Origin: a virus
Lineage: Duplodnaviria; Heunggongvirae; Uroviricota; Caudoviricetes
IMG/VR virus record: IMGVR_UViG_2671180275_000009
Span: 1-40,622 of that record
Strand: one strand, 5' to 3'
Length of the DNA: 40,622 nucleotides
This document shows, in pieces, positions 1 to 40,622 of the stretch. Below the pieces are notes generated by a model, which was given only the letters and a program-made list of their open reading frames with translations, was not told the DNA's origin and searched no databases. A program made the position numbers and the translations under genes. The first letter of the stretch is position 1. Each line of letters starts with the position of its first letter.

Positions 1-1589
1 ATGATGTTAAATGCATGGCACCTGCCGGTGCCCCCATTTGTTAAACAAAGCAAAGATCAACTGCTCATTACACTGTGGCTGACGGGCGAAGACCCACCGC
101 AGCGCATTATGCTGCGTACAGAACACGATAACGAAGAAATGTCAGTATCGATGCATAAGCAGCGCAGTCAGCAGCAGCCTGGCGTCACCGCATGGCGTGC
201 GGCGATTGATCTCTCCAGCGGACAACCCCGGCGGCGTTACAGTTTCAAACTGCTGTGGCACGATCGCCAGCGTTGGTTTACACCGCAGGGCTTCAGCCGA
301 ATGCCGCCGGCACGACTGGAGCAGTTTGCCGTCGATGTACCGGATATCGGCCCACAATGGGCTGCGGATCAGATTTTTTATCAGATCTTCCCTGATCGTT
401 TTGCGCGTAGTCTTCCTCGTGAAGCTGAACAGGATCATGTCTATTACCATCATGCAGCCGGACAAGAGATCATCTTGCGTGACTGGGATGAACCGGTCAC
501 GGCGCAGGCGGGCGGATCAACGTTCTATGGCGGCGATCTGGACGGGATAAGCGAAAAACTGCCGTATCTGAAAAAGCTTGGCGTGACGGCGCTGTATCTC
601 AATCCGGTGTTTAAAGCTCCCAGCGTACATAAATACGATACCGAGGATTATCGCCATGTCGATCCGCAGTTTGGCGGTGATGGGGCGTTGCTGCGCTTAC
701 GCCACAATACGCAGCAGCTGGGAATGCGGCTGGTGCTGGATGGCGTGTTTAACCACAGTGGCGATTCCCATGCCTGGTTTGACAGGCACAATCGTGGCAC
801 GGGGGGAGCTTGTCACAACCCTGAATCGCCCTGGCGCGACTGGTACTCGTTTAGTGATGATGGCACGGCGCTCGACTGGCTTGGCTATGCCAGCTTGCCG
901 AAGCTGGATTATCAGTCGGAAAGTCTGGTGAATGAAATTTATCGCGGGGAAGACAGTATTGTCCGCCATTGGCTGAAAGCGCCGTGGAGTATGGACGGCT
1001 GGCGGCTGGATGTGGTGCATATGCTGGGGGAGGCGGGTGGGGCGCGCAATAATATGCAGCACGTTGCTGGGATCACCGAAGCGGCGAAAGAAACCCAGCC
1101 GGAAGCGTATATTGTCGGCGAACATTTTGGCGATGCACGGCAATGGTTACAGGCCGATGTGGAAGATGCCGCCATGAACTATCGTGGCTTCACATTCCCG
1201 TTGTGGGGATTTCTTGCCAATACCGATATCTCTTACGATCCGCAGCAAATTGATGCCCAAACCTGTATGGCCTGGATGGATAATTACCGCGCAGGGCTTT
1301 CTCATCAACAACAATTACGTATGTTTAATCAGCTCGACAGCCACGATACTGCGCGATTTAAAACGCTGCTCGGTCGGGATATTGCGCGCCTGCCGCTGGC
1401 GGTGGTCTGGCTGTTCACCTGGCCTGGTGTACCGTGCATTTATTACGGTGATGAAGTAGGACTGGATGGCAAAAACGATCCGTTTTGCCGTAAACCGTTC
1501 CCCTGGCAGGTGGAAAAGCAGGATACGGCGTTATTCGCGCTGTACCAGCGAATGATTGCGCTGCGTAAGAAAAGTCAGGCGCTGCGTCG
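1..1589 (+). pseudogene. malZ: Maltodextrin glucosidase MalZ, N-terminal ~529 codons; the frame runs into prophage sequence and stops at 1602
   Basis: Translation matches my recollection of E. coli MalZ N-terminus ([32 protein letters not shown]...); native MalZ is ~604 aa, here the C-terminus is replaced by ...ALRRVTR* from the element end. Confidence 0.85.
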
Positions 1590-1780
1590 TGTAACCAGGT
1601 AAATCATTTGATACCGACAAGGGTTTTAGTGAAAGGAGGTGAAATCACCTGTAAGATACTGAAATAAAACAGGTGATCGATGATTCTGGAGGTTACTTAG
1701 TTTTGATACTGATTAAATAAAATCCGGTATAAAATTAAGGCATCGGCAACAAATTTGATACTGCACATACTGCTTATAGA
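1590..1780 (+). repeat. Prophage left end (attL-like) with three TTTGATAC-containing putative transposase-binding repeats and an 8-bp inverted repeat
   Basis: TTTGATAC at 1607-1614, 1702-1709 and 1754-1761 (spacing 95 and 52 bp, similar to Mu L1/L2/L3 layout); TCACCTGT 1643-1650 and ACAGGTGA 1669-1676. Confidence 0.5.
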
Positions 1781-1895
1781 CGTTTTAAAAAGTACTTAAA
1801 ATGTCTTTCATGCTAAAAAGTTTATATCAATGTCGATCTGGTCACAAATCAAGTTGAAAGTGCTCGCTAAGTGCATAGGACTGGGCTTCATGGGG

Positions 1896-2414
1896 TTACG
1901 CTTTGGCTTCTTTATGGGTTAGATTGAAATGATGATCCTTGGTTTCATCTCCCTCGAAAATCTCTCTAACCTTTTGATCTGATAAATTATTGAGGCTCAA
2001 TGCTGCCAGGCGTCGAATACCTGTTAAAGCGATCAGCTCTTGATTCTCTTGATTGCAGAATTCCAGCAATTTTTCTACCCCTTTCCTTCTCAAGGTGTAA
2101 ATAACTAATTCTTGCTCTTCTTGGTTCAAGGTGTCGATGAGTTCGAGCAACTCGCTATTGCCACCGTTCTTTTTAGGGGCTTGGTGTTTTATTTCTGCAC
2201 TACCTGTAATGATGGAAACTACATGTGCAGGTAAGTCGCTTAAACGGTAGGCAAATGCTCTCCCTCTGATACCGGGTGTAGTTACCGAACGTTTTTCCCA
2301 TCCTTCATTTTTTGCTCGTTTATGAAGCCCAGCCAGAGATGAAGGAAGACCTCCAACCCCCAACAAGTCACTGGCAAGGATCCATTCTTGGTCAAGGATC
2401 ATATCAAACTCCAT
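1896..2414 (-). CDS. c: Mu repressor c-like protein
   Basis: Minus-strand ORF divergent from ner; N-terminal LPSSLAGLHKRAKNEGW motif shared with the N-terminus of the transposase at 2859, as in Mu Repc and MuA. Confidence 0.7.
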   Translation of the reverse strand: MEFDMILDQEWILASDLLGVGGLPSSLAGLHKRAKNEGWEKRSVTTPGIRGRAFAYRLSDLPAHVVSIITGSAEIKHQAPKKNGGNSELLELIDTLNQEEQELVIYTLRRKGVEKLLEFCNQENQELIALTGIRRLAALSLNNLSDQKVREIFEGDETKDHHFNLTHKEAKA

Positions 2415-2632
2415 TTGATATTAACTTTTGTTCATATCTCTTCTGTGGTTTATTTCAAAAATAATCTAATATAAAACAAATAGATATCGAGTAAATCTAA
2501 GGAATTTGAAATTAACCGGTTGATATTTACTTAGTTAATATCTAATATATCAAACATACACTAGTGAGTAACTCAATAGAGTAGCACACATGAGTAATAA
2601 AGTTTGCCATAGAAAGTACACAGGGGGCCATT
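2415..2632. promoter_or_regulatory. c/ner divergent operator-promoter region (candidate operators and transposition enhancer)
   Basis: 218-bp AT-rich intergenic region between divergent c and ner; palindrome AACCGGTT at 2514-2521; repeated ATATCTAATAT-like motifs. Confidence 0.4.
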
Positions 2633-2878
2633 GTGAGTCTTATTGAAGATTGGTCTTCCGCCGATATAAAGGCAGCCTTAGAAAAACGCGATACCAATTT
2701 GTCACGTTTATCAAGGGAAAATAATTTGCAGCCTAGGACTTTGGGTAATGCTTTGCGAGTTCCCTACCCTAAAGGTGAAAAGATTATTGCTAGGGCTATA
2801 GGTGTAGAGCCGCAAGTTATTTGGCCTACTAGATATGAACGACGTGCGCGGAGGAAATATGTGGGTTGCAATGACTGA
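2633..2878 (+). CDS. ner: Ner-like DNA-binding protein (GTG start)
   Basis: 81-aa ORF with ...GEKIIARAIGVEPQVIWPTRY, resembling the Mu Ner C-terminus (...IIANALETKPEVIWPSRY). Confidence 0.8.
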   Translation: MSLIEDWSSADIKAALEKRDTNLSRLSRENNLQPRTLGNALRVPYPKGEKIIARAIGVEPQVIWPTRYERRARRKYVGCND

Positions 2879-4943
2879 ATTGATTTCATTCAGTGACCTA
2901 CCTAGTTCTTTGGCAGGTCTGCACAAAAAAGCAAAGAGGGAGGCGTGGAAAACGCGGCTAAAACCAGGGGTAAAAGGGAAAGTTTTAGAGTGTGAAATAG
3001 GTGCTTTGCCTTTAACTGTTCAGCAGGCAGTACGTGAACGCTACGCCCTGCAACTGATGACGCAAAAAGCCGATGAATCACCGGCTCCGGTGGTGACAAA
3101 GGCCAGACGCTCACCTGCCGTGGTTGATGCGGTGGAGGCATATCGCGGATCACCACAACTGATGGTCGAACGCCTCAATGCCCTGACTGAAAACCAGCGC
3201 CAGGTGGCTGATGCACGAATCGCGATCGTCAGCGAAGTTCTGAAAGTCGCGCAACAACCTGGTTTCAGCTGTGCGAAGGCTATCCGGTTTATCGTTGACA
3301 ACCTGGCACGTTCGCAGCTGGACGAGCGCATTGTGGCAATGGTTGAGACGGCGAACGCCAAAAAGGGAAACAGCCGCGCGTTAAGTGAAATCACGCTGAA
3401 ACGCTGGATTGCGGCCTTTAACAAGGCGCAGAACGCCGCTGAACGCCTGCTTTTACTGGCACCGGGTAAGCGCCAGGAAATAAAAGCCGAAGATATTAAC
3501 TGGCTGCCCGAATTTCTGGCGCAGTATCGCCAGTCAAACGGCCGACCAATGACCGAGGCTTACGAGGATTTTGTCGCTGAATGGCAGCACCGGCACGCTG
3601 ATGAGCCTTATATGCTCGATATCATGCCGTCTTATGACACCATTCGCCGCGCAATGAAGAAACTGCCGGAAGTGGTGAAACAAAAAGGCCGGGTGACCGG
3701 CAGTGAATACCGTCAGCTTGAGGGATTCACGCGCCGCGACTGGTCCAGAATGCCGGTGAATTATGTCTGGATTGGTGACGGTCACGGCATGAAGCTGAAA
3801 TGCAAACACCCGGTTCACGGACGGCCATTTGCACCGGAAGTGACCTTTATTATCGACGGTGGCACACGCTTTGTGGTGGGCTGGAGCATGGACCTGGCTG
3901 AAAATGTTTTCGCCGTAGCCGGTGCCATACAGCACGGCATTCGTCATCACGGCAAACCGTTTCTGTATTACTCGGATAACGGTTCGGGGGAAACCGCCGA
4001 CATCCTGGATAAGGAGGTTGTGGGGATCCTGCCGCGCCTGGGGATTAATCACCCGACAGGGATTGCCGGTAATCCGCAGGGGCGAGGCATTATCGAACGG
4101 CTTAACCGCACATTACCAATGCGCATAGCCCGTAAATACCGCACCTATTTCGGGAAAGGTGCAGATCGCGAAACGTTACGCAAAACCAACCGCGATTTAC
4201 GCTCGGCATTCACTGCCCTGCAACAGGACAAACGGCTGAACGCCCGGCAGCAGTCAGCGATGCGTGATTTACCGTCCTGGCCTGAACTGATTGATGCCAT
4301 CCGTGATGGTGTCGAGTGGTACAACAACCGGCCGCACAGCGGATTGCCGGTGAAACCGAACGGTAAACATTACAGCCCGGCGGAATACAGGAAAAAACGC
4401 CTGGCAGAAGAGGACACGGAAATTGAATGGCTGTCCGATGTTGAGCTGCGGGATATGTTCCGGCCAATGGTGGAACGCCCTGTAAGACGCTGTGAAATAC
4501 GCTGGCTGAATAATATTTACTACGCGCCCGAGCTGCGTGATGAGCATGGCCGCAAGGTGCTTATCAGCTATGACATTCATGATGCCGAACGAATTACCGT
4601 ACGTCGCCTGGATGGCAGCGTGATTTGCGAGGCGGTATGGGACGGTAATAAACGCGAAGCCTTCCCGGTTAGCGCGGAATACTACAAACAGCAGCAACGC
4701 CTTAAAGGCATGCGTAAACGCGCAGAGGAAAAAATCCGTGATGCCGAGGATGAGGTTGTCAACGTGCTGGAGCACAAGCCGCAGGAGCCCTGGCTGGAAA
4801 ACATATACCGCCCTGTGGGTAATACGGTGACCGTTCAGCAACCGGTCGCTGACGATGAACCTGATGAAGAATGCGAGCGTAATTTCCAGCGGGGATTGCA
4901 GCTGCTTGAAGCGAAATTAAAAGAAAATGACCCGCTGGCCTGA
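2859..4943 (+). CDS. A: Mu A-type DDE transposase
   Basis: ~694-aa ORF; N-terminal repressor-like DNA-binding motif (LPSSLAGLHKKAKREAWKTR); position after ner; start 2859 or 2868 uncertain. Confidence 0.9.
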   Translation: MWVAMTELISFSDLPSSLAGLHKKAKREAWKTRLKPGVKGKVLECEIGALPLTVQQAVRERYALQLMTQKADESPAPVVTKARRSPAVVDAVEAYRGSPQLMVERLNALTENQRQVADARIAIVSEVLKVAQQPGFSCAKAIRFIVDNLARSQLDERIVAMVETANAKKGNSRALSEITLKRWIAAFNKAQNAAERLLLLAPGKRQEIKAEDINWLPEFLAQYRQSNGRPMTEAYEDFVAEWQHRHADEPYMLDIMPSYDTIRRAMKKLPEVVKQKGRVTGSEYRQLEGFTRRDWSRMPVNYVWIGDGHGMKLKCKHPVHGRPFAPEVTFIIDGGTRFVVGWSMDLAENVFAVAGAIQHGIRHHGKPFLYYSDNGSGETADILDKEVVGILPRLGINHPTGIAGNPQGRGIIERLNRTLPMRIARKYRTYFGKGADRETLRKTNRDLRSAFTALQQDKRLNARQQSAMRDLPSWPELIDAIRDGVEWYNNRPHSGLPVKPNGKHYSPAEYRKKRLAEEDTEIEWLSDVELRDMFRPMVERPVRRCEIRWLNNIYYAPELRDEHGRKVLISYDIHDAERITVRRLDGSVICEAVWDGNKREAFPVSAEYYKQQQRLKGMRKRAEEKIRDAEDEVVNVLEHKPQEPWLENIYRPVGNTVTVQQPVADDEPDEECERNFQRGLQLLEAKLKENDPLA

Positions 4944-5019: not shown

Positions 5020-5952
5020 ATGACCGATATTAACGATGTAATCAAGACCATTGATGAGCTTATTGATGGCGGCGTACTGACGCAGTATGCCATCGCCAGA
5101 GAGGCGGGAATTTCCGACGGCACATTATCGGCTTTCCGCAAGGGAAAATATAAAGGCGATAACGCTGCTGTGGCTGCTTCCCTGCGCTCCTGGTATGAGA
5201 ACTGGAATAAACAAAGCGCACTGCCCGAGCCGCCGCAGTTTGTGGAAACGCAGACAGTCCAGGAGCTGCGCGCGCTGTTTCAGGCGGTCCGCCTGATGGG
5301 CTGTATTAACGTCATAGTGGGCGTGCCCGGGGTGGGTAAAACGGCCACGGCTCGTAATTACTGTCAGGAACAACCGAACACCTGGATGATCACCCTGTCG
5401 CCCGCGCATTCCAGCGTCACGGAGTGTCTGCTGGAGCTGGCAGAGGAACTGGGGATTGATTACACCCGCGCGAACAAGGGGGCGTTATCCCGCGCCATCC
5501 GCCGTCGCCTGATGGGAACGCGTGGACTGGTGATTGTTGATGAGGCGGATCACCTTGGTATTGACGGTCTGGAACAACTGCGTGCAATCCAGGACGCCAC
5601 GGGGATCGGGATGGTGCTTATTGGTAACCCACGCGGACTGTTTAAGGGTGGACGCCGCGCCGTTGATGATTTATCGCGCCTGTTCAGTCGTCTTGCCCGT
5701 ACAAAACAACTTCGCAAGGCCAAAAAGGCGGATGTGCTGGCCATTGCCAGGGCATGGGGGATTAGTGGTGAGGCCGAGCTGGCTGTCATGCAGGCTATCG
5801 CTGAAAAGCCGGGAGCCTTACGCGTTCTGACACATACGCTTAACCAGGCGTGGATCACCGCCAGCGGTGAAGGCGCGGCGCTGACAGAAAAACATATTAA
5901 TGCGGCCTTTAAAGAGGTTTATACCAACCCTGAATTACTCTCACAGGTGTGA
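5020..5952 (+). CDS. B: Mu B-type transposition ATPase
   Basis: 310-aa ORF with N-terminal HTH-like region and Walker A GVPGVGKT; immediately downstream of A. Confidence 0.85.
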   Translation: MTDINDVIKTIDELIDGGVLTQYAIAREAGISDGTLSAFRKGKYKGDNAAVAASLRSWYENWNKQSALPEPPQFVETQTVQELRALFQAVRLMGCINVIVGVPGVGKTATARNYCQEQPNTWMITLSPAHSSVTECLLELAEELGIDYTRANKGALSRAIRRRLMGTRGLVIVDEADHLGIDGLEQLRAIQDATGIGMVLIGNPRGLFKGGRRAVDDLSRLFSRLARTKQLRKAKKADVLAIARAWGISGEAELAVMQAIAEKPGALRVLTHTLNQAWITASGEGAALTEKHINAAFKEVYTNPELLSQV

Positions 5953-19147: not shown

Positions 19148-19231
19148 GTCGGTGGCGGGGGTCGAACCCGCATAAACATCCCTCAGGAAAAAACCATCAG
19201 GCGCCGCTTTACCAGTTAAGAGTACACCGAC
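19148..19231 (-). ncRNA. tRNA-like structure (acceptor stem plus T-arm) between the F-like and G-like genes
   Basis: On the minus strand: GTCGGTG ... GCGGG TTCGACC CCCGC CACCGAC, i.e. a perfect 7-bp acceptor stem and 5-bp T-stem with a TTCGA-type loop; D and anticodon arms are not canonical. Confidence 0.25.
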
Positions 19232-19269
19232 CTGCTTTTATTTTAACCAGGTAGTTTCACGGAGGCAAT

Positions 19270-19743
19270 ATGTCATCCATTGATGCCGCTGTCGTTGTTG
19301 ACGTTACGCGTCTCCAGCGGGTGTTTGCCCGGCTTCAGTTTGTGGGGGGCGGAAAAGACCTGGCCCGCAGTGTGGCGTCCAGCCTTCTGTCATCCTCAGA
19401 AATGGCGTTTGAACAGGAAAAAGAGCCGGACGGCGAACGCTGGCATGACTGGTCAGATCCTTACCGCAAGTGGCGTACCCGTAAGGGATACACGCCCGGC
19501 AAAATCCTGACGCTGAACGGCGATCTGGCCCGCCGCCTGACCACGGATTATGGCGATACCTGGGCGCTGATTGGATCAAATGAACCTTATGCAGCCATTC
19601 ATCAGTGGGGTGGCCTGCCTGGTATGCCACCGGGACTGGCAGCCATTGGCGCACGTCCGTATATGGGCTTTGATGAGGTGGCTGAACAGGAGATCATGGA
19701 CGAAATCAGAAAACGCTTTAAAAAGGCCACAGAAACGCCTTAA
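19270..19743 (+). CDS. Mu G (gp31)-like virion protein
   Basis: 157-aa ORF in the Mu G position. Confidence 0.5.
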   Translation: MSSIDAAVVVDVTRLQRVFARLQFVGGGKDLARSVASSLLSSSEMAFEQEKEPDGERWHDWSDPYRKWRTRKGYTPGKILTLNGDLARRLTTDYGDTWALIGSNEPYAAIHQWGGLPGMPPGLAAIGARPYMGFDEVAEQEIMDEIRKRFKKATETP

Positions 19744-39415: not shown

Positions 39416-39601
39416 ATGTATCGAAACATACGGTGCCGACACTGCAATAAGCTACTGGCACGGGCCAGTTTCAGTTATCTGGAAGTAAAATGTCCGCGCT
39501 GCAAAACCCTCAATCAAATCACATCTCAGAGCGCCACAGAGCACCCCACATACACAAGGAAATCCTGCCGTGGGGAACAAGAAACATTACTTTCAGTCTG
39601 A
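39416..39601 (+). CDS. com: Com-like zinc-finger translational activator
   Basis: MYRNIRCRHCNKLLARASFSYLEVKCPRCK closely resembles my recollection of Mu Com (IRCKNCNKLL...IEIRCPRCK); GGAGG RBS; 3' end overlaps the next gene. Confidence 0.8.
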   Translation: MYRNIRCRHCNKLLARASFSYLEVKCPRCKTLNQITSQSATEHPTYTRKSCRGEQETLLSV

Positions 39602-40622
39602 TAAGTCACTAACCTATGGTTCAGTATGCAGTGGTATTGAAGCTGCGACAGTAGCCTGGAGCAATCTTGGCTGGAAAGCCAGATGGTTCAGTGAAATAGA
39701 GGACTTCCCGTCAACACTTCTTTCATATCGCTGGCCCCATATACCAAATCTTGGTGATATGGCTTTGCTTGCGCCTCGTATCAGGGATGGGCTTATTGAA
39801 GCACCAGATATTCTTGTAGGTGGAACTCCGTGTCAGGCATTCAGTATGTCAGGCAAACGAAAAGGCCTTTCAGATCCACGGGGGCAGTTAACACTGTCTT
39901 TTGTTGAACTGGCGAATCAGATAGATACCGTTCGGGCATCGCTCAATAAATCCCCCTCAATAATCGTATGGGAAAACGTCACAGGAGTTTTAAGTAGCCA
40001 TGACAATGCATTCGGTCATTTTCTTGGTGCGCTGGCCGGAGCAGGTTGCGCATTACAGCCAGCAAGGAAAAGATGGGCAAACGCTGGTGTTGTGTCTGGA
40101 CCATCGCGTATCGTCGCCTGGCGAGTACTTGATGCCCAATATTTCGGAGTCGCCCAGGCTCGCAGAAGAGTGTTTGTTGTGGCAAGTGCTGGAAAAAGGC
40201 TCGATCCCGGAAAGGTATTATTTGAGTTCCCGCCTGTGTCGCAGGGCGATAAAAACTATTACGGAAAGAAGAAAAAATCCGAATCCCTTCTTGATCAAGG
40301 CATTGAAGGAAAATTGCACCGATATTGCCTTGAAGCATTGCCAAAACGAACAGGCACAGTAATAGCTGGCTATAACGGAACAACTAACCAGGACATGACT
40401 ATGTCTGGTGGGCTCATAGTTGAAAGAGCGCCATATTCAAGGGTTCGTAGGTTGACGCCAACCGAATGCGAGAGGCTACAAGGTTTTCCCGATGGATATA
40501 CAGATATTCCATGGAAAAATTCATCTCCAGCTCATCGTTATAAGGCCATTGGAAATTCAATGCCTGTACCGGTCATGAAATGGATTGGTCGAAGAATACA
40601 GGAAGCGTTAAACGAAGTTTAA
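39570..40622 (+). CDS. C5-cytosine DNA methyltransferase (GTG start overlapping com)
   Basis: Motifs GGTPCQAFS (catalytic PCQ), IVWENV, QARRRVF and IGNSMPVPV in canonical order; stop codon is the last triplet of the window. Confidence 0.85.
   Translation: MGNKKHYFQSDKSLTYGSVCSGIEAATVAWSNLGWKARWFSEIEDFPSTLLSYRWPHIPNLGDMALLAPRIRDGLIEAPDILVGGTPCQAFSMSGKRKGLSDPRGQLTLSFVELANQIDTVRASLNKSPSIIVWENVTGVLSSHDNAFGHFLGALAGAGCALQPARKRWANAGVVSGPSRIVAWRVLDAQYFGVAQARRRVFVVASAGKRLDPGKVLFEFPPVSQGDKNYYGKKKKSESLLDQGIEGKLHRYCLEALPKRTGTVIAGYNGTTNQDMTMSGGLIVERAPYSRVRRLTPTECERLQGFPDGYTDIPWKNSSPAHRYKAIGNSMPVPVMKWIGRRIQEALNEV

Follow-up and report, generated by a model that had tools for sequence, protein, structure and literature searches.

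What kind of element begins inside malZ in the IMG/VR virus record IMGVR_UViG_2671180275_000009, and which protein would read the repeats at its border? The record, assigned to the Caudoviricetes, was analyzed over positions 1 to 40,622, and this whole stretch of 40,622 nucleotides is referred to here as the window. An initial annotation, made from the letters alone, had proposed a prophage left end resembling that of phage Mu in layout and departing from it in sequence. Our comparisons make it highly likely that the element is a transposable prophage of the Mu-like Sp18 type that entered malZ by transposition, with its left end (attL) at 1590–1764, and that the TTTGATAC repeats in this end are predicted sites for its transposase. 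The feature is of a textbook kind and the prophage family is known; the end seen in the window is the cis-acting end that an element of this known kind would be expected to have.

The malZ Junction and the Left Terminus

A megablast search with positions 1400–3000 against 5,426 complete Escherichia coli genomes shows homology to malZ up to 1591 and homology to prophages at other loci from 1590 onward. Because malZ homology ends at 1591 and prophage homology opens at 1590, we place the start of the element at 1590, TGTAACCAGG, with the opening letters TGTAACC; the TG at 1590–1591 coincides with the next two bases of malZ. The initial annotation had likewise let the element begin with TG where malZ homology stops, so that the junction and the TG are retained and only the position is corrected, from 1589 to 1590. 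That this is a prophage left end is borne out by an identical end at eight other chromosomal sites in other strains, including that of Sp18 in E. coli O157:H7 Sakai. The right part of the window shows a 97–98% match to Sp18-type prophages, and the transposase cluster has about 7,000 member sequences. The insertion of the window prophage in malZ was found in none of the 5,426 complete E. coli genomes searched.

The terminal 17 bp of the prophage, TGTAACCAGGTAAATCA (1590–1606, + strand), start identically in the eight other insertions, with the putative cleavage and joining point at 1590. The AGGTAA core of these 17 bp persists in subfamilies with other immunity or repeat types. Immediately outside, GTCG at 1586–1589 is the predicted left copy of a 4-bp target-site duplication, as judged from related insertions, 10 of 10 of which have a 4-bp duplication (see below).

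The host gene is represented by the 5' part of malZ (maltodextrin glucosidase; 1–1589, + strand; 100% megablast matches to annotated malZ), cut by the insertion and lying in an open reading frame at 1–1602. The malZ frame continues 13 nt into the prophage end, with a stop codon at 1600–1602. The predicted host product is a truncated MalZ of 533 amino acids, the last three to four residues of which come from the prophage, and maltodextrin glucosidase activity should be lost.

Three Repeats at the Left End

The + strand carries TTTGATAC at 1607, 1702, and 1754, exactly where the initial annotation had put its three repeats; there is one further copy in the whole 40.6 kb. Widened to 11 nt, the repeats read TTTGATACCGA, TTTGATACTGA, and TTTGATACTGC, with spacings of 95 and 52 bp. 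Counted from the terminus, the TTTGATAC words have offsets of 18/113/165 and their GATAC cores offsets of 21/116/168, which compare with 22/127/167 for the CGAAA cores of the Mu left end; the proposed L1-L2-L3-like layout thus holds. L1 (1607–1617, + strand) is the terminal repeat TTTGATACCGA, a predicted transposase site, which starts at nt 18; the right end of related prophages has the same motif at nt 18, inverted. L2 (1702–1712, + strand) is the second repeat, TTTGATACTGA, at nt 113 from the terminus, and Sp18 has it at the same offset within otherwise unrelated sequence. L3 (1742–1764, + strand) combines the third repeat, TTTGATACTGC, at 1754–1764 (nt 165) with a conserved upstream box, ATCGGCAA, at 1742–1749, both identical in Sp18.

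Taken alone, the count of TTTGATAC over the whole window is not significant (4 versus 1.15 expected, reached by 4 of 100 shuffles). The clustering is significant: any 8-mer present at least three times in 1590–1789 was seen in 106 of 20,000 dinucleotide-preserving shuffles (0.5%). Once conservation in relatives is counted, the repeat cluster is well beyond chance.

Conservation between the Window and Sp18

Comparison with Sp18 provides a natural footprint of the left end. The two ends are 97% identical over nt 1–88 and 43% identical over nt 89–260 (ungapped). Within the latter interval, the only identical runs of at least 6 nt at the same offsets are TTTGATAC (113–120), ATCGGCAA (153–160), and TTTGATACTGC (165–175); two identical runs of at least 9 nt arose in 0 of 5000 shuffles.

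The candidate binding proteins differ in how far they are kept. The window and Sp18 have unrelated repressor DNA-binding domains and Ner proteins that are 38% identical, whereas their transposases are 92% identical overall and about 98–100% past residue 70, and their MuB proteins are 99% identical. The two transposases differ only in their first ~70 residues, the enhancer/operator-binding domain. Of repressor, Ner, and transposase, only the transposase would thus fit as the binder of the repeats.

The exchange between the two prophages is an immunity-module swap: positions 1590–1677 of the window are shared with Sp18 (L010 in our numbering of compared prophages) and 1678–~3070 are swapped, with sharp boundaries at nt 88 and at about transposase residue 70. 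The N-terminus of the Sp18 repressor matches the repressors of the L031 and L011 types, which carry CI/HTH_3 Pfam hits.

Right End and Target-Site Duplication in Related Prophages

The window closes at the stop codon of its last prophage gene and has no right end inside it, in agreement with the initial annotation, which had placed the right end beyond the window. We therefore turned to relatives, gathered via E. coli genomes, phage records, and exact-protein look-ups; a single-transposase scan of genome contigs gave two loci. Nine genomes with complete TTTGATAC-ended prophages and one prophage with TTCAAGATAA ends were compared. These prophages are about 35–40 kb long and occupy 10 different chromosomal sites. 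The TTTGATAC-ended insertions lie in torZ, ttdB, meaB, an alcohol dehydrogenase gene, ypdA, hyfF, the yahO-yahN region, sorM (Sakai Sp18), and ydcO; a further insertion site among the 10 relatives is next to a vgr/rhs cluster. The SuMu phage record, which has host DNA within its ends and no clearly readable repeats, was not used.

Eight of the 10 relatives open with TGTAACCAGGT and close with ...ATCGCCGCGCTATA; the other two, which represent subfamilies, have TA at both ends. In the eight TGTAACCAGGT-type copies the right terminus is ...GCGCTATA-3' and the left is TG, so the TG...CA pair of Mu is absent. Read inward, the right end of the relatives carries TTTGATAC at nt 18/40/75, inverted with respect to the left end, with GATAC cores at 21/43/78. 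The matching inverted right-end repeats that the initial annotation anticipated are thus present in the relatives; the right end of the window element itself lies outside the window.

In 10 of 10 independent cases the target duplication is perfect and 4 bp long (tgct, agag, gtca, tctg, ctga, cgag, tttt, taaa, ttca, and gtga). When two empty sites were reconstructed by leaving one 4-mer in place, each aligned with other genomes in a single piece at 496 of 496 positions. The Mu prophage of E. coli W served as a control and, processed in the same way, gave TG...CA termini and a 5-bp GCCGC duplication. A duplication of 5 or 6 bp, obtained by shifting the terminus by one base, was considered and rejected: the flanks mismatch in most insertions, and every copy has the same outer T and A. 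The initial annotation had expected a 5-bp duplication of malZ sequence at 1585–1589 and had counted its absence against the element. The relatives and the two empty sites contradict this length, and the bases expected to be duplicated are GTCG at 1586–1589. Since the relatives duplicate 4 bp, reading the lack of a 5-bp duplication literally would falsely dismiss a correct interpretation.

By analogy with L002, in which the same methyltransferase gene stops 164 bp before the right terminus, the right end of the window element is expected about 164 bp past 40622. The predicted right junction is ...CATTTCATTTGATACCG...AAAATCGCCGCGCTATA, followed by GTCG, then TG..., and then malZ.

The termini also bear on existing annotation. 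The annotated boundaries of Sp18 (Sakai NC_002695.2, 5040971–5079729) miss the inferred termini, by 1 nt at the left end and by 5 nt at the right; these termini are T 5040970 and A 5079724, giving an element of 38,755 bp rather than the annotated 38,759 bp.

Exchange of an Iβ-Like Segment and the Repeat Type

The transposase of the window is a full-length but remote homologue of MuA (~22–25% identity). In a comparison by hhalign of a nine-sequence profile with MuA, the probability was 99.4% (E 5e-21, 606 columns). This alignment places residues 93–150 on MuA residues 80–134, within Iβ, and the Iβ-like segment spans about residues 93–215. A sequence search of PDB matches only the MuA N-terminal domain and, with the profile, also the C-terminal part of MuA. 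For residues 80–300 the AlphaFold model has a mean predicted local distance difference test score (pLDDT) of 66, with 75–91 for residues ~109–194, and the Iγ-like part is poorly modelled. A Foldseek search of the transposase model against PDB gave no significant match, so the structural line of evidence is weak. The putative catalytic residues D307, D373, and E413 are invariant in the alignment and lie within integrase-like motifs.

The transposases of two types of E. coli prophage, represented by P0023 and L011, are 98–99% identical in the Iγ-like and catalytic parts and 42% identical in the Iβ-like core (window residues 114–194). P0023 has a window-like helix, LS(E/A)ITLKRW, and L011 has ISRDPLYQWV instead. 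Prophages of both types have a common right terminus, TAAAGCGCGCAAAAT. The ends of the P0023 type contain TTTGATAC at 18/122/164 on the left and 18/40/75 on the right, while those of the L011 type contain TTCAAGATAA at 18/89/141 on the left and 18/40/75 on the right. The helix LS(E/A)I(T/S)LKRW and the TTGATAC word are both kept in two further relatives, one of a Salmonella type (78% identity) and the other the Klebsiella phage Kp4866-3 (55%). The swap of the Iβ-like segment coincides with the switch of the repeat from TTTGATAC to TTCAAGATAA, and the naturally swapped segment suggests which part of the protein may set end specificity.

Predicted Function of the Repeats and Alternative Explanations

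Based on these comparisons, the TTTGATAC repeats are very probably transposase-binding sites. Binding, synapsis, cleavage chemistry, and the enhancer role are proposed here by analogy with Mu. L1 at 1607, L2 at 1702, and L3 at 1754, same-orientation copies of TTTGATAC(Y)G, would each be bound by monomers of the element's own MuA-family transposase, as would R1–R3, the inverted right-end copies beyond the window. The bound ends would pair into a transpososome, in which the transposase N-terminal domain probably contacts the operator/enhancer at 2415–2632. The transposase would then nick the 3' ends at the termini, at ...TTACA-3' on the bottom strand at 1590 and at ...GCTATA-3' at the right end. 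The nicked ends would be joined to phosphates 4 bp apart in a target supplied by the MuB-like ATPase, and repair or replication would leave the 4-bp duplication. Recognition may be split, such that an Iβ-like helix-turn-helix (~110–195) reads TTTGATAC and the rest of the protein reads the terminal 15–17 bp. Ends of the same kind occur in a plaque-forming phage, Yersinia phage vB_YpM_5 (PMC10434027).

A different role for the repeats could lie in immunity control, as operator-type sites for the repressor or Ner, which we regard as highly improbable. The operator region of the same prophage (2415–2632) does hold three copies of a similar word, TTGATAT (2415 and 2520 on the + strand, 2547–2553 on the − strand), and the repressor and the transposase N-terminus have a common DNA-binding domain, the N-terminal DNA-binding domain of the repressor being 42% identical to the N-terminus of its own transposase (E 2e-13). 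TTGATAT is nevertheless distinct from the end motif and is not present in the operator regions of Sp18, L031, and L011, and even the shorter TTGATA is missing from those of Sp18 and the P0023 type (L031). Moreover, TTTGATAC has the same end positions in Sp18, in prophages of the P0023 type, and in Klebsiella phage Kp4866-3, whereas the compared repressors have unrelated DNA-binding domains and the Ner proteins are 38–56% identical. Three inverted copies just inside the far right terminus would also be senseless for operators.

It is similarly very unlikely that the repeats or their surroundings serve packaging, as a pac site, or the binding of a host factor, rather than transposition. The pac site of Mu maps to the L1-L2 interval of its left end, and the corresponding spacer of the window is kept with Sp18 and varies with the packaging genes. 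This idea suits the spacer and its 9-bp inverted repeat and not the TTTGATAC words, which also occur at the right end, where pac is not expected; hybrids with Mu's own terminase (gp27 100% identical) have TTTGATAC ends together with a non-Mu transposase. Finally, three 8-mers could arise by chance in AT-rich DNA (34% G+C), and the whole-window count alone would allow this. Such an origin is practically out of the question, given the rarity of three copies of an 8-mer in a 200-bp region among shuffles, the exact positions kept by Sp18 in otherwise unrelated sequence, and the same architecture at both ends of related prophages.

Several points weigh against assigning the repeats to the transposase of an Sp18-type prophage. 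The assignment is a comparative one, and the repeats are predicted sites. The prophages compared for the Iβ-like swap differ in many other genes as well, and the co-variation is suggestive but falls short of proof. The Mu-specific Iγ and core models of Pfam miss the transposase, even at E values up to 1. In Mu, some sites (R3 and partly L3) are dispensable, so the three repeats need not matter equally (PMC3145075). Finally, neither the element's own right junction nor the second copy of the duplication falls within the window, and viral contigs searched for exact matches to ATCGCCGCGCTATAGTCGTG gave none.

The L1-L2 Spacer, Packaging Genes, and Hybrid Phages

The L1-L2 spacer contains a 9-bp inverted repeat with a 16-nt loop (1644–1677), in which ATCACCTGT at 1644–1652 pairs with ACAGGTGAT at 1669–1677. 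The inverted repeat of the initial annotation is therefore real and does lie between repeats 1 and 2, with a length of 9 bp in place of the reported 8. It falls within the 88-bp block that is 97% identical to Sp18. A role as a terminator was considered and set aside, as no terminator-like site was found within 1500–2900. A degenerate repeat, GATACTGA (1655–1662), lies within the loop. There is a likeness here to L002, in which an 8-bp inverted repeat, GCGCCAAT/ATCGGCGC, in the region 40124–40165 encloses R3 within its loop and has TTTTC after it; this R3 hairpin is terminator-like and comes directly after the gene for the methyltransferase or mom.

When phages are compared, variation in the spacer goes with the packaging genes and not with the transposase. 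The gp27 proteins of the window and Sp18 are 57% identical to that of Mu, and their spacer differs from the Mu-like one. As the spacer seems to track the packaging module, it plausibly holds pac, as the L1-L2 interval of Mu does, and its inverted repeat is a candidate pac or host-factor site.

Two phages combine these modules differently. L031 (E. coli 1290, NZ_CP184007.1, 167779–~203865) has Mu's own late genes, with gp27 100% and the large terminase 97.5% identical to those of Mu. This hybrid nevertheless has a non-Mu transposase and ends of the TTTGATAC/TA type, along with a Mu-like L1-L2 spacer and the 4-bp duplication GTGA. L033 (Yersinia phage vB_YpM_5, 4560–4930) likewise has a Mu-like L1-L2 spacer, a non-Mu transposase, and TTTGATAC/TA-type ends.

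Early Genes and Other Features of the Window

Beside the left end are four early genes, followed by Mu-like late genes that were identified from open reading frames and the annotation of relatives. A Mu c-like repressor is encoded at 1896–2414 on the − strand (Pfam HTH_Tnp_Mu_1, E 4e-7). Between it and ner lies the divergent promoter/operator region (2415–2632), the presumed equivalent of the Mu enhancer, a role proposed by Mu analogy (PMC3145075). The Ner-like early regulator (2633–2878, + strand; Pfam HTH_35, E 7e-27) is followed by the MuA-family DDE transposase of 694 amino acids (2859–4943, + strand), which contains the Pfam domains Mu-transpos_C and HTH_Tnp_Mu_1. Its ATG at 2859 follows a GGAGGA ribosome-binding site, and the longest open reading frame runs from 2835. 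A MuB-like AAA+ ATPase, the putative target-DNA activator, is encoded at 5020–5952 on the + strand (Pfam Phage-MuB_C, E 5e-25, and AAA_22) and is 49% identical to MuB.

The last prophage gene in the window encodes a C5 DNA methyltransferase (39570–40622, + strand; Pfam DNA_methylase, E 2e-42), at the stop codon of which the window ends. This C5 cytosine methyltransferase is located downstream of com, in place of the mom gene of Sp18 and Mu. In the assembly collection, 2,090 blocks contain an identical methyltransferase, and no two of the ten places shown share an insertion site.

In L001, L002, L005, L008, and L009, a 'tRNA-OTHER' is annotated by RefSeq between head-morphogenesis genes, corresponding to about 19150–19270 in the window. 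No tRNA was found by ARAGORN at this position or elsewhere in the window, and a gathering-threshold Rfam scan of the window was also blank.

A Possible Transposase Clade with Undescribed Parameters

Mu is the reference for DDE transposition, and textbooks give its end architecture, its terminal CA, and its stagger of 5 bp. In the literature searched there is no description of the end repeats or end sequences of the Sp18 family, nor of a 4-bp duplication for any transposable or Mu-like phage. We tentatively propose, with a little less than even confidence, that a widespread enterobacterial clade of MuA-like transposases (Sp18-, vB_YpM-, and Kp4866-type) has so far undescribed parameters: a 4-bp stagger, TA-3' at the right terminus (at both ends in some), and a swappable Iβ-like segment that alone sets TTTGATAC or TTCAAGATAA, with the terminal ~15 bp following the rest of the enzyme. 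If this proposal is correct, these would be naturally orthogonal Mu-like transposition systems, and the Iβ-segment swap could serve orthogonal mini-Mu tools. The exact termini together with the 4-bp duplication also permit precise annotation of prophages whose current boundaries are loose, as in Sakai. Members of the Sp18-type family are very frequent in Shiga-toxin-producing E. coli, in which they interrupt genes and even Shiga-toxin (Stx) phages.

Comparison with Known Transposable Phages

The element resembles Mu in several respects. The order repressor, ner, A, B beside the left end is the same, with the repressor divergent. Both have three repeats per end, a spacer of ~70–95 bp from L1 to L2-L3, and R1 and R2 placed 22 bp apart (PMC3145075). 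The left terminus is TGTA in both, the repressor N-terminus resembles the transposase N-terminus, and insertion is non-site-specific with a short duplication. They differ in the recognition word, which is TTTGATAC with its GATAC core where Mu has CGAAA cores; on the right, the Mu cores lie at 22/44 with an inverted core at 57. R3 is direct in the Sp18-type relatives and inverted in Mu, the right terminus is TA-3' rather than CA-3', and the duplication is 4 bp rather than 5 bp (PMC3145075). The Mu left end given in the initial annotation, TGTATTGATTCACTTGAAG, agrees with NC_000929.1, and TGTA is all that it has in common with the window end. The initial annotation had also suggested a transposase specificity distinct from that of Mu, with which the low identity to MuA and the lack of Mu-type CGAAA sites at the ends are in accord. 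SfMu was considered as a relative and rejected; its proteins are more than 90% identical to those of Mu (PMC4406740), and it has no match to the left 3.4 kb of the window.

The closest known relative is Sp18, with which the window element shares the first 88 bp (97%), the L1–L3 offsets, and the type of right end. Its immunity module is unlike that of Sp18, with differences in the repressor, in Ner, in the N-terminal ~70 residues of the transposase, and in the sequence surrounding L2-L3, and its C5 methyltransferase replaces mom. The Sp18-type family of Shiga-toxin-producing E. coli has been described as intact, packaged, mobile, and variably located (PMC2669165, PMC7430833, PMC10132054), and Sp18 DNA itself is packaged (PMC2669165).

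Yersinia phages vB_YpM_5/6, which were isolated and form plaques (PMC10434027), and the P0023-type E. coli prophages belong to the same transposase clade (75–76% identity), with TTTGATAC at nt 18 of both ends and right-end positions of 18/40/75. They differ from the window element in having 5'-TA at both termini, Mu's late genes (measured on L031), and a Mu-like L1-L2 spacer.

Duplication length and terminal dinucleotide also vary among other transposable phages. The duplication is 6 bp in B3 and in Leptospira prophages, the latter with TA-TA or TG-CA ends (PMC8705779), as opposed to 4 bp in the Sp18 type. The Sp18-type family combines the end architecture of Mu with another recognition word, TA at the right terminus, and a stagger of 4 bp.

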